A program made the position numbers and the translations under genes. Below are positions 6,402 to 16,808 of a DNA stretch of 59,380 nt, piece after piece. Position 1 is the first letter of the stretch; each line of letters begins with the position of its first letter. The notes beneath the pieces are model-generated. The model was given only the letters and a program-made list of their open reading frames with translations. It was not told the DNA's origin and made no database searches. Source of the DNA: Klebsiella phage vB_Kpn_RAH2; sequence record PV576491.1; one strand, given 5' to 3'.

Positions 6402-8993
6402 TTACACCTCGTCATCGTCTTCATCATCGAACGGATTTTTCGCTTTTCCGATCTTGTTTTCGACGATCTTGTTATGGTCTTTTAGCGTCTTAACGGCCCA
6501 AACGGTGTTCAGTTTTCCGTTCTCTCTTTTGGCCGCTCTCACGTTTCTTCTGGTGAAGCAGCGGCCGGTAACGCCATCGATTTTTAGCAGTCCACCAGGC
6601 TCAAAACCGAGGTCCAGGAGGAGGTTTTTTAGTCGGTTCGTCTTCGGCATTTCGACGTCCGGCATCTCCATAAAAGCGTCCTTTAAAGCGGGCGAGAAAA
6701 TAATGTCTTTGCACACGCCCAGTGTCTCGTTCTCCCTGATCATGGTGGCTAACATCTCGCCGACGCCGTCGCTGGAAGCCTCCATCATTACCTGGAAAGC
6801 ACGGGTGTCCTGCGGGGCATGGCCCTTATGGTTGAAGTCCGGGGAGATCTCCCATTCGAGGAACCATTTCTTAATGGCAGGGCCGTGATTTTCGATAGCC
6901 CGATAGACGTTAGAGAAGAACTTCTCGCGTTCCTTTGCCGACCCGTAAACGCGGTCCATATCGAGATGGTTTTCCGCCTGCGTGGAGACGACCAGGTAGC
7001 GGCGCTGGTTCTCGTCCAGCGGCAGCGCGTTGATGTGGTTGGTGAACATCAATTTCGAGCTGGTATTGACTACGTCACGCGGCTTGACGCCTTTCCCTTC
7101 AACCTGGAAGCGGTCGTTCGAGATAAATTCCTTCTGCTTATCGACGGCGCTGTACCGATCACCCTTGTCATACACCTCTTCCACGATTTTCAGGATGTGG
7201 CCTTCCGCCCAGTCGGTGAAACGGCCATTCATGACGGAGTTAGAGACGTATCCGATGTTCTGCGCCCCCAGCATTTCGCGCATAAGCACCCCGATCGTGG
7301 ATTTACCCGAACCGTGCGCCCCGCGGATGAGCAGTGAATAGTTGATGCGCTTTGTCGGGTGCTGGACGATGTGCGCCAGCCAGTCCATGACGTACGTCCG
7401 CTCTTTCGTGTCAGGGAACAGCACGATAAAGAGGTCTTTGACGATAGAAATGGCTTTTTTGTCCAGCTTTGACAGTTTTTCCGCTGCTTTTGGGATGCTT
7501 TCAGGCGAAAACGTGTTCAAACGTAGCAATCCGGAGTCGTCATAGAAGAATTCCGGCCCCAAAAGACCTTCTTTTTGCGTCCATTTCGTCTCCTGCATGC
7601 CGCCATGCATCTCCGGATAGTACATAACGTCGTGAATAATCGGGATTTTTACGACGTCCGTGGCGAACTTATTCGGCGATAAACCGCCTTCCACGTCGCC
7701 GATATCACGCCCATGGGACGAATCGAAGGCGCCTTTTGACAGTAAAACACCGGTTTTCCGGCTGACAAATGCATCCTGTGCCTGTGCAAAAACGTATTCT
7801 TTCAGCCAGTTAGGCGTATCCGCGCGGGAAAAGTCGAAACTGAGGTACTCTTTAACGGCTTTATTGGTCAGCGCGCTTTCGTTCAGGCGTTTGTAGGCTT
7901 TCTTGGCCGCGTCAATAGTCGGCTGGCGCTCAATGCCGAAAACCCGCAGCTTACGGAAGTCATCCGCCCAGGCTTTCCAGTCAGCCATGGTGGTAACTTC
8001 GTTGAACGCCTCGGTAAACTCGGAAACCTGTTCCCGGGCTTCCTTCTCTTCGATTTCGTGGACCGTTTTGATGATGGTGCCGATTGTCACCAGCGTCTGG
8101 GCATCATGGGTGAAGCCTTTTTCCCACTTGTACTCGAATTCCGACTCGTCATAGTTATCCGCCTGCATGGACCAGTCGCGGGCGATCTCTTTCGCTTCAT
8201 CCTGATCGCGGCATGACACCTGCAGCGCGGCCATCACCCGGATCCAGTTTTCATAGTTCTCCGGGTCAGGGTATTTCATGACGATATCGCGCAGCTCGTC
8301 GTAGGTGCCGTCCCACTTGGTGACGGTGGCCATTGCCGCCCAGTCGTCATCGTCCGCTTCGCCTTCCGCCGCCCGCCCGTTAATGGCCCGTGCGACTTTC
8401 ATCCATCCCTGTTTTTCGGCATAGGCGTCGAACGCATCGGCGATATCGCGGGCGATCTCCAGCGTGATTTCAGGCAGGTCCATGGCGGCCGCGCAGTTCA
8501 CAGGGGTATCATCGGTGATCCATGTGTATTCCTTGCGCGTATCCGGGTGGATACCGAAGGCGACGAACTGCTGGCCGTCACCGAGGATTTCGACGGCATG
8601 GCGCTGGCCGAAGTCATCTTCCCAGGTGGCGGACTTAACCTTTTTGAACGGCTCGTCGGTATGGCAAAGCACCAGTTTTTTCGGTTGACGGCCAACACGA
8701 ACCGGGCCGGCGCCGATTTTCTTTTCGACAATGGCCATCATGTGCTTAACCCCGTCTTTGTCGTAGACGTCAATGTCTACCGCCGGGGTGTGCTTGGTCA
8801 GGATGCCGATGCCGGATGATGCGTATTTCTTCACGAAACCGTTAATCTGGCCACGGGTGTTCTCTATTTTCTGCCAGTCTTCAAACGCAGGCCGTTTTCC
8901 TGCTTTTGGCCTTGGCGAGTCAGGCGGAATGATGGGAACGACGGTGAAGCCGTTTTCCCACAGCGCTATTCCGTATTCGTTCCAGTAGTTCAT
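6402..8993 (-). CDS. bifunctional primase-polymerase (prim-pol) fused to a D5/P4-alpha-like SF3 helicase, 863 aa
   Basis: The N-terminus has a prim-pol-like region with the VDIDV acidic motif. The C-terminal half has Walker A GAHGSGKST and a D5_N-like region. It ends in the acidic tail DDEDDDEV. Confidence 0.75.
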   Translation of the reverse strand: MNYWNEYGIALWENGFTVVPIIPPDSPRPKAGKRPAFEDWQKIENTRGQINGFVKKYASSGIGILTKHTPAVDIDVYDKDGVKHMMAIVEKKIGAGPVRVGRQPKKLVLCHTDEPFKKVKSATWEDDFGQRHAVEILGDGQQFVAFGIHPDTRKEYTWITDDTPVNCAAAMDLPEITLEIARDIADAFDAYAEKQGWMKVARAINGRAAEGEADDDDWAAMATVTKWDGTYDELRDIVMKYPDPENYENWIRVMAALQVSCRDQDEAKEIARDWSMQADNYDESEFEYKWEKGFTHDAQTLVTIGTIIKTVHEIEEKEAREQVSEFTEAFNEVTTMADWKAWADDFRKLRVFGIERQPTIDAAKKAYKRLNESALTNKAVKEYLSFDFSRADTPNWLKEYVFAQAQDAFVSRKTGVLLSKGAFDSSHGRDIGDVEGGLSPNKFATDVVKIPIIHDVMYYPEMHGGMQETKWTQKEGLLGPEFFYDDSGLLRLNTFSPESIPKAAEKLSKLDKKAISIVKDLFIVLFPDTKERTYVMDWLAHIVQHPTKRINYSLLIRGAHGSGKSTIGVLMREMLGAQNIGYVSNSVMNGRFTDWAEGHILKIVEEVYDKGDRYSAVDKQKEFISNDRFQVEGKGVKPRDVVNTSSKLMFTNHINALPLDENQRRYLVVSTQAENHLDMDRVYGSAKEREKFFSNVYRAIENHGPAIKKWFLEWEISPDFNHKGHAPQDTRAFQVMMEASSDGVGEMLATMIRENETLGVCKDIIFSPALKDAFMEMPDVEMPKTNRLKNLLLDLGFEPGGLLKIDGVTGRCFTRRNVRAAKRENGKLNTVWAVKTLKDHNKIVENKIGKAKNPFDDEDDDEV

Positions 8994-9286
8994 TCAAGAA
9001 TTTCTCCGCTTTCGTCGTTGAAGCGAACCCAGTCCGGGTTAGTCAGCCAGTGTGGACGAATACCGGAAGTGCGGGCGACGTCACATATCGTCTCTGCCAT
9101 TTGGGCAGAAACCGTATTGCGGATATTCCAAAGCAGGGTGTCGTAATTAACGCCAGCTGCCTTCGCCAGTACGGTCAGCCTGCCTTCCGGATCAATCTCC
9201 AGCGCGGCAAGGCTCATAAGGTACCGGACTTTCAAGCGGCCATCATTCCTGGCCCATGGTGGGAAACGCATAGAAAAACCTCGCAT
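8990..9286 (-). CDS. small HTH DNA-binding protein, candidate transcriptional regulator (93-98 aa)
   Basis: Helix-turn-helix-like segment LAKAAGVNYDTLLWNIRN. Sits at the divergent promoter region. The start may be the internal ATG at 9271. Confidence 0.4.
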   Translation of the reverse strand: MRGFSMRFPPWARNDGRLKVRYLMSLAALEIDPEGRLTVLAKAAGVNYDTLLWNIRNTVSAQMAETICDVARTSGIRPHWLTNPDWVRFNDESGEILE

Positions 9287-16255: not shown

Positions 16256-16808
16256 GACCGCCCCGCTGGCGACCCGCAATCGGCGATCGAATGCGCCGGA
16301 CGCTGATACCGAGGCGATGATTTTTCAGGGGTGCAACATAACGCAACTGGCGAAGCTGTTCCGCATGGAGCGCCGGGACATCACGCCGAAGATCATGGAT
16401 ATCCCGCCAGTCGGGGAGCGCGGCGGGTACCCGATTTACGCGGTCCACGAAGTCGCGCCGTACCTGGTGAAACCACTGTACGACGTCGAGACGTATTTGC
16501 GCCGCATGAACTTCAAAGACCTGCCCAAAGAGCTGTCGAAGGAGTTCTGGAACGGCCAGCGTGCGAAGCAGGAGTATGACCTACGCGCAGGGAACCTGTG
16601 GCCAACGGAAGACGTGGTCAGCGTATTCGGCGAAGCAATCAAAACGCTGCGAATGAGTCTGCTGCTGATCCCCGACACCTTATCGCGGCAAGTAGGGCTT
16701 ACCGAAGCGCAGCGCAACGTGGTGCAGTCATCGGTGGATTCAATACTGGATGACCTCGCGAATACCCTGGAAAGACGGTTCGCGGAGGAAGAAGACGATG
16801 AAGTTTAA
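16239..16808 (+). CDS. putative small terminase subunit / DNA-binding protein, 189 aa
   Basis: Lies immediately upstream of the large terminase gene and overlaps its start. HTH-like segment NITQLAKLFRMERRDITPKI. Ends in the acidic tail EEEDDEV. Confidence 0.45.
   Translation: MTKTTKTAPLATRNRRSNAPDADTEAMIFQGCNITQLAKLFRMERRDITPKIMDIPPVGERGGYPIYAVHEVAPYLVKPLYDVETYLRRMNFKDLPKELSKEFWNGQRAKQEYDLRAGNLWPTEDVVSVFGEAIKTLRMSLLLIPDTLSRQVGLTEAQRNVVQSSVDSILDDLANTLERRFAEEEDDEV

Follow-up and report, generated by a model that had tools for sequence, protein, structure and literature searches.

What does it mean when unrelated proteins end in the same few residues? The question is raised by a 59,380-nucleotide stretch of DNA from Klebsiella phage vB_Kpn_RAH2 (PV576491.1; hereafter, the window), a Chi-like siphophage (Casjensviridae) in which about ten otherwise unrelated DNA-handling proteins carry an acidic C-terminal tail. 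An earlier note on this DNA had listed a set of these endings and had proposed that they represent one portable docking peptide with a common partner.

A strictly C-terminal acidic tail on unrelated proteins

All the C-termini listed in the earlier note were found where it had placed them, including that of the SNF2-family helicase, which ends ...WDDEDD without the terminal V. In its full form, the tail consists of an aromatic residue followed by 3-10 Asp/Glu residues and an aliphatic residue with a free carboxyl end. The tail-bearing proteins (clients) were identified using Pfam and PHROGs and are collected in Table 1. The acidic tail is absent from the polymerase, portal, protease, capsid and tail proteins, as that note had also described, and from TerL.

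Table 1. Clients in the window and C-terminal ends of their homologues
Protein	Coordinates	Strand	C-terminal end	Identification	Ends of homologues
Prim-pol/helicase, 863 aa	6402-8993	-	...NPF-DDEDDDEV (encoded ~6405-6431)	Pfam Prim-Pol, PriCT_2, DUF5906	...DDEDEV (SP-030), ...DDEEI (phiA034), ...DVDDDL (MA12)
Lys-rich protein, 133 aa	9501-9902	+	...SEEDDV	phrog_7721	by clade: ...EEDDV, ...DDDI, ...EEDGL, ...DDDDM
DUF2800 (Cas4-like PD-(D/E)xK) exonuclease, 449 aa	10300-11649	+	...AY-DDEDDDDEV (encoded ~11617-11646)	Pfam	...W-DDEDDDEV, ...W-DDDEI, ...F-DNMDDDL, ...DAVL, ...DDLV
gp2.5-like SSB, 206 aa	11696-12316	+	W-DDDEDW-EDDDAGDEDDDV (encoded 12257-12313), ending ...DEDDDV	Pfam Enc34_ssDNA-bd (DUF2815), E = 7e-30	
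SNF2-family helicase	14768-16255	+	...LW-DDEDD (variant: aromatic residue and acidic run, no aliphatic cap)	Pfam SNF2	full client in other clades: ...EEDDEI (phiA034), ...F-SDDDEL (MA12)
TerS (terminase small subunit), 189 aa	16239-16808	+	...RRF-AEEEDDEV (encoded ~16779-16805)	DUF1441 / phrog_141	
DUF7443 protein, 89 aa	23679-23948	+	...KKGGKAGA-ADEEV	Pfam; lambda-FI position after major capsid gene	cap co-varies: ...EDEV (SP-030), ...DDEV (Stilesk), ...NDDEI (phiA034), ...KEEEL (MA12), ...DDDL (Inception)
PAPS-reductase-like / DNA-modification protein (weak member)	52424-53137	-	...QW-DEV		...WDEI (two), ...MEEEEI, ...FDDL
255-aa protein of unknown function (weak member)	54323-55090	-	...REEDIEV	phrog_6886	...EGEVEI, ...EEDVEI
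Further weak member	55247-55519	-	...NPDV		
RdgC-family protein	55750-56841 (about)	-	...QL-EDDDEV	Pfam	...EDDDEV, ...DDDDEV, ...EDDGEI, ...PEDDEL, ...VEDDM
DUF7609 protein, 125 aa	58822-59199	-	...TPEDDEV	Pfam	...ADDDEV, ...EDDDEV

The tail is a real signal that lies well above chance. Eight of the 85 proteins in the curated gene set end in [DE]3V and nine end in [DE]2V. Shuffling of whole proteins gave a mean of 0.013 endings in [DE]3V with a maximum of 2 among 20,000 shuffles, while shuffling of only the last 12 residues gave a mean of 0.19 and a maximum of 3. Thus, the amino acid composition, which the earlier note had named as a possible trivial explanation, does not account for the motif (eight observed versus 0.013 expected). 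Moreover, the motif is strictly C-terminal, with a single internal [DE]3V in the 18,851 residues of the same 85 genes versus eight at the terminus.

A by-product at the nucleotide level, i.e. a Shine-Dalgarno sequence (GAGGTG) for coupled genes, overlapping frames or gene conversion between gene ends, could be read from a few of the gene ends. The RdgC and PAPS-reductase-like genes end GAG GTG TGA and the DUF7443 gene ends GAG GTC TGA, in all three cases with a start codon 1-2 nt further on, and the end of the TerS gene overlaps the annotated start of TerL. However, an adjacent start codon is present at only three of 11 gene ends; for six of the nine tails, no start codon lies within range downstream, and several are followed by terminator-like hairpins. 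The Val codons (GTG, GTT, GTC) and the acidic codons differ among the genes and, therefore, there is no common DNA sequence, while in other genera tails capped by I or L are retained on the same proteins. In a six-frame scan of 419 ORFs of at least 45 aa, all nine with an acid-rich end and V are real genes and the motif never occurs in ORFs in non-coding frames. Together, the gene-end, codon and non-coding-frame evidence effectively refutes this explanation.

The tail is probably a C-terminal short linear motif (SLiM) on the end of a disordered, leash-like segment. It has the features generic to such motifs, i.e. it is at the extreme C-terminus, lies in a disordered context, is kept while the flanks diverge and is present on unrelated carriers. 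AF2 models were made for SSB and DUF7443, and in both the tail segment is of low confidence and probably disordered. For SSB, whose last 19 residues include 13 that are acidic (D or E), the pLDDT is predicted at >90 in the core and at 67 dropping to 50 in the tail (residues 181-206). The DUF7443 protein has a folded N-domain, a hypervariable repeat linker (pLDDT <50) and an invariant end; because of the DUF7443 match, this post-capsid ORF is a real gene, and it is annotated in FSL SP-030, Stilesk, Inception and phiA034. In the Lys-rich protein, an N-terminal helix precedes a K/G/A-rich linker, which is followed by a helical domain and the tail.

Conservation and concerted change of the terminal residue

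The tails are conserved across 53 loci. The earlier note had asked whether homologues in related phages keep the tail, and they do: an acidic run with a final V, I, L or M is present in 119 of the 120 SSB cluster representatives, and one with a final V, I or L in 63 of 73 TerS cluster representatives. Over the 120 SSB clusters, the cap is L in 66, I in 39, V in 10 and M in 4, and it is never aromatic. The identity of the cap varies by phage, with V in Klebsiella, Salmonella and Providencia phages. When annotation is ignored and all acid-ended ORFs are considered, the terminal residue is V in 9/14 in the window, I in 11/12 in Aeromonas phage phiA034 and L in 14/15 in Pectobacterium phage MA12. 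The number of clients per genome is 8-11 in the window phage and reaches up to 15 in MA12.

The cap changes in concert. Among 18 representative genomes with exonuclease identity <55%, the terminal residue is concordant in 69 of 80 within-genome pairs of tail proteins, while permutation gave 28.9 +/- 4.3 concordant pairs with a maximum of 50 in 5,000 permutations. In a neighbor-joining tree, I-type clades arise at least three times and L-type clades at least four times. In remote lineages (L052-L060), two-residue endings (VL, ML/LL, LV/LI) are common to the exonuclease, SSB and TerS; likewise, the primase and SSB tails co-vary across clades, and changes in the TerS tail go along with changes in the SSB and exonuclease tails. 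We found no link between cap type and GC content. The cap codons vary synonymously (GTG/GTT/GTA, ATC/ATT/ATA and CTN/TTR) and, therefore, selection acts on the amino acid.

A concerted cap switch is what would be expected of one shared reader. Because the cap switches to I or L jointly in all tail proteins of relatives, the pattern points to a single phage-encoded candidate reader that would link replication, recombination and DNA packaging. In other words, enrichment, conservation and the concerted cap all lend support to the proposal of a portable docking peptide with a common partner. The concordance is imperfect: one lineage (L030) has a mixture of V, L and I; in the Proteus clade, the caps are variously M, I, L and F, and the tail of TerS has been lost; and in L028, SSB ends in F and TerS in I. 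Therefore, either a range of aliphatic residues fits the pocket or the tails have more than one reader.

The same data bear on the idea that the tails act independently of one another, each as a DNA mimic that folds onto the DNA-binding surface of its own protein and tunes its specificity without a common reader. Every client is a DNA-binding protein, and deletion of the tail of the Enc34 SSB unmasks dsDNA binding (PMC5686142), as this idea would have it. Also, TerS homologues of lambdoid phages without this replication module, as well as the Jersey-like phage VSiP, have acidic ends without an aliphatic cap, or at least without a consistent one in the case of TerS. However, a self-acting mimic leaves unexplained both the invariant aliphatic C-terminal residue in 119 of 120 SSBs and the joint V/I/L switch in up to 15 unrelated proteins per genome, and it would need the co-evolution of ten or more unrelated pockets. 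We therefore regard it as improbable.

A proposed docking mechanism and its candidate readers

We consider it likely, judging from the sequence patterns, that the tail is a portable docking peptide with one, or very few, phage-encoded readers common to the clients. In this model, each tail-bearing DNA-transaction protein, i.e. the primase-helicase, exonuclease, SSB, RdgC, SNF2 helicase (in some genera), DNA-modification enzymes, TerS and the head-module protein, would dock on the same reader site. The acidic run would provide an electrostatic, DNA-like affinity toward a basic surface, while the terminal aliphatic side chain and carboxylate would fill a specificity pocket that accepts V in this phage and I or L in other genera. 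As a consequence, the clients would concentrate and exchange on phage DNA undergoing replication, recombination and packaging. In addition, the tails may gate the DNA binding of each client itself, as for the Enc34 SSB. In all of this, the docking itself, its reader and its effect on function are inferred.

A docking mechanism does not account for the presence of TerS and the head-module protein on one hub with the replication proteins, which counts against it.

The SSB groove and the polymerase would be the leading reader candidates. It is possible, if tentative, that the reader is the tail-binding groove of the gp2.5-like SSB; in this case, the tails of the clients would imitate that of the SSB itself, and the clients would dock on or cap ssDNA coated with SSB. 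That the reader is the DNA polymerase, by analogy with T7, seems rather doubtful to us, and we would give similar weight to there being no single reader; TerL or another conserved protein would be an unlikely reader. A sub-clade in which a family-B polymerase replaces the family-A enzyme keeps the terminal L in 17/19 tails. Because this sub-clade retains its tails, a family-A polymerase is not required, which speaks indirectly against it as the sole reader. Scans for column association of the polymerase, TerL, VRR-NUC, SNF2 and SSB with tail type gave no outlier, the AF2 model of the SSB monomer had no confident docking of its own tail, and Pfam identified no known peptide-binding domain among the window proteins scanned.

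Could the reader be provided by the host, i.e. the host SSB or its interactome, the beta clamp, or a protease or adaptor that recognises C-termini? Host hubs reading C-terminal peptides exist, such as the SSB-Ct partners and the beta clamp, and the tail types broadly track host groups (I in Aeromonas and L in Pectobacterium phages). However, the V type is found in E. coli/Salmonella Chi-like phages and in Stilesk, a Providencia phage, while E. coli phage E21 and Kokobel1, another Providencia phage, are in a mixed-cap clade in which the TerS tail is absent, and the Cronobacter-like L028 is I/F. Also, the tails are unlike clamp-binding motifs, and T7 grows on E. coli with an F cap that is read by its own polymerase. 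A host reader is, thus, very unlikely; rather, the reader is probably phage-encoded because cap regimes differ among phages of the same hosts. Of the hubs put forward earlier, i.e. the DNA polymerase, the SSB OB-fold or a host protein, the last is thus unlikely, and the first need not be a family-A enzyme.

The strictly C-terminal position of the motif and its free carboxylate would also suit a degron, or a substrate for a protease or for an enzyme that modifies C-termini, like RimK or tubulin ligases, by which early proteins would be removed or modified at a set time. In other systems, enzymes do act on acidic tails that bear a hydrophobic cap, and many phage ORFs are still unannotated. By contrast, a Pfam scan of 30 window proteins detected no protease, ATP-grasp or carboxypeptidase domain, TerS and the head-module protein are among the clients and are required late, and the closest characterised tails, those of T7, Enc34 and bacterial SSB, are binding elements. 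We find this explanation highly improbable.

Returning to docking on a phage-encoded reader, we tentatively speculate that Casjensviridae-like phages may use an orthogonal "C-terminal address code", in which one phage receptor would read 10-15 proteins and couple replication, recombination, DNA modification and terminase-driven packaging, with the cap (V, I, L or two residues) being re-set in concert as lineages diverge. If so, this code could keep the phage machinery separate from co-infecting relatives and from the SSB interactome of the host. In the literature searched, we found no description of such a tail network, in line with the earlier note, whose author knew of none.

Comparison with known systems

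In eukaryotes, C-terminal SLiMs such as the EEVD motif of Hsp70/90 read by TPR domains, the EEY motif of tubulin read by CAP-Gly domains and class III PDZ ligands are acidic with a hydrophobic last residue, work only at the extreme C-terminus and, like the window tails, are portable among unrelated proteins. The resemblance is one of logic only, and no TPR, CAP-Gly or PDZ domain was detected among the window proteins scanned. The T4 sliding clamp gp45, to which gp43, gp33 and gp55 bind by C-terminal peptides, has a likeness to the window tails in that proteins of separate pathways, i.e. replication and late transcription, meet on one hub, which is also linked to packaging. However, the gp45-binding peptides are hydrophobic, unlike the polyacidic window tails, and no clamp gene was recognised in the window.

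In bacteria, the tip of SSB (DDDIPF) is likewise an acidic, hydrophobic-capped peptide on a flexible linker that organises many replication, recombination and repair proteins, and its D-F-DDD-IPF layout resembles the F/W/Y-[DE]n-V (aromatic-acidic-hydrophobic) layout of the window tails. Yet the topology is inverted: bacteria have one tail, that of SSB, and many pockets, whereas the window phage has many tail carriers, i.e. the partner proteins themselves carry the tail. The fold family also differs, the SSB of the window phage being of the gp2.5 type, unlike bacterial SSB.

Crystals of the Enc34 SSB show the tail in a beta-sheet groove of a neighbouring molecule, and the last 11 residues, including the cap, are disordered, which counts against the docking model (PMC5686142). 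The closest precedent is T7, in which the acidic, Phe-capped tails of two clients, gp2.5 and gp4, bind the front basic patch of the polymerase (bioRxiv 10.1101/2025.03.07.642097). As in T7, the window phage has an SSB of the homologous gp2.5 type (Pfam Enc34_ssDNA-bd) with a tail in a low-confidence, probably disordered segment, its SSB (...DEDDDV) and primase-helicase (...FDDEDDDEV) end in tails of the same kind, with an acidic run and a hydrophobic free C-terminal cap, and several proteins are presumed competitors for one site. The T7 tails are read by the gp5 DNA polymerase and the DNA-binding cleft of gp2.5; outside the core motifs, no similarity between the window polymerase and gp5 could be detected, and the resemblance is too low for mapping the basic patch. 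The cap also differs: T7 uses an aromatic Phe (...DGDF, ...DTDF), while the window phage has V and its relatives V, I, L or M in the SSB clusters. Finally, T7 has only two clients, and its TerS, exonuclease and other proteins do not have the tail, whereas the window phage has 8-11, extending the clients beyond those of T7 to TerS, the head-module protein, RdgC, the exonuclease and DNA-modification enzymes.

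The acidic C-terminal tail in the window

The acidic C-terminal tails ending in valine that the earlier note read from the sequence are all present where it placed them. Of the 85 proteins, 8 end in [DE]3V, far above the mean of 0.013 (maximum 2) in 20,000 shuffles of whole proteins and the mean of 0.19 (maximum 3) when the last 12 residues were shuffled. Internally, [DE]3V occurs once in 18,851 residues, and motifs of this type are absent from all ORFs in the non-coding frames of the window. Weaker members of the set end in ...WDEV, ...EEDIEV and ...NPDV. The 85-gene set was obtained by transferring the annotation of phage PIN2 and filling the gaps. 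Pfam and PHROGs identified the prim-pol/helicase, a DUF2800 nuclease, a gp2.5-like SSB (Enc34_ssDNA-bd), an SNF2 helicase, RdgC, TerS (DUF1441/phrog_141) and two proteins of unknown function, DUF7443 and DUF7609.

In five proteins, the acidic run comes straight after an aromatic residue (F in the primase and TerS, Y in the exonuclease, W in the SSB and SNF2). Because this residue is also kept in relatives, we read the complete motif as aromatic, acidic run, aliphatic carboxy-terminus. SNF2, which the earlier note had set apart for lacking the terminal valine, has only the aromatic residue and the acidic run. This second, capless form (...LWDDEDD, ...GAWDDE, ...EVWDD) recurs in SNF2 and takes the place of the capped tail in some clades, i.e. 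in the primase and exonuclease of loci L025-L028 and the exonuclease of L018. Among the conserved proteins, the family-A polymerase, VRR-NUC, TerL and the virion proteins never carry the tail, and the family-A polymerase always ends in ...FYRKD. Overall, one peptide is common to about a tenth of the phage proteome, and for annotation it flags proteins likely acting on phage DNA.

Two products of the window resemble a nucleoside 2-deoxyribosyltransferase and a PAPS reductase; for the latter, the top PHROGs match bears the name DNA methyltransferase. Because both genes are present and kept in most relatives, they suggest that the phage may modify its own DNA.

Coordinates of genes and regions in the window and its relatives
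Feature	Genome or locus	Position (strand)	Remark
SNF2 helicase	window	14768-16255
DUF7443	window	23679-23948
DUF7443 and following gene	window	23679-24315	start of following gene most likely ATG 23950, one base past the DUF7443 stop
Nucleoside 2-deoxyribosyltransferase-like protein	window	45010-45810 (-)
PAPS-reductase-like protein	window	52424-53137 (-)
Additional 73-aa tail protein	PIN2 (L001+L002)	46492-46713 (-)	ends ...NFIEDDV; no counterpart in window
Early region	MA12 (L068, NC_053015)	13000-36500	RefSeq annotation of MA12 has only 38 CDS and calls plus-strand ORFs here
RdgC	MA12	20813-21889 (-)	strand by homology
Primase	MA12	33883-36465 (-)	strand by homology
Family-B polymerase	L035	12074-14149
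Family-B polymerase	L037	12127-14187
Family-B polymerase	L061	7153-9225
Family-B polymerase	L039	6139-8181

Concerted change of the terminal residue

The window is ~95% identical over 20 kb to the Klebsiella siphophages PIN2, KPN N98, Seifer and Soft and ~75% identical to Salmonella Chi-like phages; the taxonomy lines of the relatives' records place these phages in the Casjensviridae. We compared five complete genomes (Salmonella FSL SP-030, Providencia Stilesk, Aeromonas phiA034, Proteus Inception and Pectobacterium MA12) and 53 loci from IMG/VR, each centred on an exonuclease homologue (28-99% identity), and in both sets the tails are kept in homologues. The terminal residue, or cap, is clade-specific and is so in all tail proteins together. 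The Klebsiella, Salmonella, Providencia and Enc34 clade has ...DDEV, the Aeromonas clade has ...DD[DE]I, with SNF2 carrying the full tail there as well, and two more clades have ...DDDI. In MA12, the primase, the Lys-rich protein, the exonuclease, the SSB, SNF2, TerS, DUF7443, RdgC and several early proteins end in ...DD[DE]L. In remote lineages, two-residue endings (VL, ML/LL or LV/LI) are common to the exonuclease, the SSB and TerS.

When ORFs were counted free of annotation (minimum 45 aa, penultimate segment rich in acidic residues), the last residue was V in 9/14 in the window, I in 11/12 in phiA034 and L in 14/15 in MA12. In 18 representatives with <55% exonuclease identity, tail proteins of one genome were paired, and the cap agrees in 69 of the 80 pairs; 5,000 permutations gave 28.9 +/- 4.3 such pairs and never more than 50. 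On the NJ tree, clades of the I and L types are intermixed. The SSB ends in an acidic residue plus V/I/L/M in 119 of 120 cluster representatives, with an aromatic cap in none of them, and TerS ends in an acidic residue plus V/I/L in 63 of 73.

In the Cronobacter-like locus L028, the ending is ...DDDF in both the SSB and the Lys-rich protein and ...VEDF in SNF2, while TerS still ends in ...DDDEI. Here the cap has switched in part to an aromatic residue as in T7 and, going by these mixed caps, TerS and the SSB may be read by different sites. The set of tail proteins is fluid between relatives, because PIN2 has an additional member (see table), a PAPS-reductase paralogue in SP-030 ends in ...FEDDEV and a methyltransferase-like protein in phiA034 ends in ...MEEEEI. 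In MA12, homology puts the real early genes on the minus strand and, therefore, many genes are unannotated there.

Explanations at the level of nucleotides or composition were considered and rejected. An origin of the ...EV ends in Shine-Dalgarno sequences or translational coupling fails because a start codon adjoins only 3 of 11 gene ends, namely those of RdgC, the PAPS-reductase-like gene and DUF7443, for which GAGG(TG) could be the Shine-Dalgarno sequence; spacers or hairpins follow the remaining ends. Gene conversion between gene ends was rejected because the codons are unlike across genes and genomes: the terminal valine in the window is GTG, GTT or GTC depending on the gene, and across relatives the cap codons vary synonymously with the amino acid kept (GTG/GTT/GTA, ATC/ATT/ATA, CTN/TTR). 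Nor does GC-driven drift explain the change of V into I or L, as the I clade has the top GC content (0.60-0.61) and cap type does not follow GC content across relatives. Finally, a bias in the last residue across the whole genome was rejected because the excess is limited to acid-tailed ORFs; proteins lacking the tail do not generally end in V more often than expected.

Candidate readers of the tail

The comparative evidence supports the proposal of the earlier note that the tail would be one portable docking peptide with a common partner. The T7 precedent suggests the polymerase as this reader. In a sub-clade of four loci (L035, L037, L039 and L061), the family-A polymerase has been replaced in situ, between the SSB and VRR-NUC, by a ~690-aa protein that has no Pfam match. 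Its profile has PDB matches to family-B polymerases alone, it contains the motifs DVASYYP, KIVLNGTFGKLG and ANTDG, and its own C-terminus is ...RRE[DS]xL. Because this sub-clade keeps a terminal L in 17/19 tails, with the residues before it drifting, a family-A polymerase appears unnecessary for maintaining the constraint on the tail. The T7 gp5 basic patch could not be placed on the window polymerase, the similarity being too low.

The SSB is the sole protein with a tail in every lineage examined, and the distant Staphylococcus Triavirus agrees (SSB ...DEDFL, primase ...LEDLI). In crystals of the Enc34 SSB, the tail lies in a beta-sheet groove of a neighbouring molecule with 842 square angstroms buried, and the last 11 residues are disordered; deletion of the tail unmasks dsDNA binding (PMC5686142). 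Based on the constancy of the SSB tail together with these crystal and deletion results, we tentatively rank the SSB groove first among candidate readers, the polymerase second and TerL third; the other tail proteins would then imitate the SSB's own tail at this groove. In an AF2 model of the SSB from an 86-sequence alignment, the core has a pLDDT >90 and the last 26 residues fall from 67 to 50; when docking of its own tail was sought, the tail was placed at low confidence.

A search for alignment columns partitioning with tail type in the polymerase, VRR-NUC, SNF2, TerL, the SSB, the exonuclease, the primase and TerS gave none that was convincing, with thin sampling for TerL. Across 119 SSBs, the mutual information of SSB columns with the terminal residue was continuous in distribution, dominated by high-entropy columns and without an outlier. 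E. coli phages differ among themselves in cap regime, as do Providencia phages: the V type is found in the Chi-like phages of E. coli/Salmonella and in Stilesk from Providencia, while E21 (E. coli) and Kokobel1 (Providencia; both putative locus assignments) fall in a mixed-cap clade (M/I/L/F) that has lost the TerS tail; the Cronobacter-like L028 has I/F caps. For this reason, the reader would most simply be phage-encoded.

Reach into packaging and comparison with known systems

With TerS and a head-module protein, the tail reaches beyond replication and recombination into DNA packaging. In lambdoid phages without this replication module, TerS homologues are acidic-ended with no consistent aliphatic cap (mEp213 and LLS ...EEQPEED, Cr-LKS3 ...EEAANG, VT1-Sakai ...CDEADM), and such tails are absent from lambda, one of our two control genomes. 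Thus, the capped TerS tail accompanies the DUF2800/DUF2815/polymerase module.

The head-module protein, DUF7443, is encoded by a real gene annotated in FSL SP-030, Stilesk, Inception and phiA034; the PIN2 annotation lacks it and places the start of the next gene too early. In the window, GAGG within the DUF7443 tail codons is most likely the ribosome-binding site of the next gene. The AF2 model has a folded 52-residue N-domain (pLDDT ~85) and a linker with pLDDT <50. Among the homologues (P0194-P0258), the N-domain and the last ~13 residues are constant, with an invariant ...KKGGKAxA[DE]EEV end, and the linker is a hypervariable low-complexity repeat (units AAKEQ or APVAEEKTE) that lengthens and shortens even between near-identical phages. 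In the models, the anatomy of the SSB and DUF7443 would be that of a docking peptide on a leash. The DUF7443 gene occupies the place of the lambda packaging chaperone FI; Foldseek with the AF2 model gave only DUF7443 relatives and no PDB match, so that the analogy is one of gene position.

The earlier note knew of no description of the shared tail, and the literature searched likewise yields no account of it; the Enc34 SSB paper discusses the SSB tail alone (PMC5686142). If a single receptor exists, it would establish a new kind of hub architecture in phage DNA metabolism, provide a mechanistic handle on the coupling of replication and packaging and give phrog_7721, DUF7443 and DUF7609 a testable role. 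The V, I and L types would then be orthogonal peptide-receptor pairs, possibly useful as tools.

Of the principles that organise the T7 and bacterial replisomes, acidic C-terminal tails are the best understood. In bacteria, one SSB tail has many readers, and the topology here is the inverse. In T7, two tails have one reader: in our control, gp2.5 (...DEDGDF) and gp4 (...NDTDF) were exactly the tail-bearing proteins, with no others, and both bind the front basic patch of the polymerase (bioRxiv 10.1101/2025.03.07.642097). The system described here differs in the number of tail proteins and in including packaging and DNA modification; moreover, its cap is aliphatic rather than aromatic and is re-set in concert between genera. 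While acidic docking tails are known, their share of the proteome, their reach into packaging and the concerted switch of the cap are new compared with these systems.
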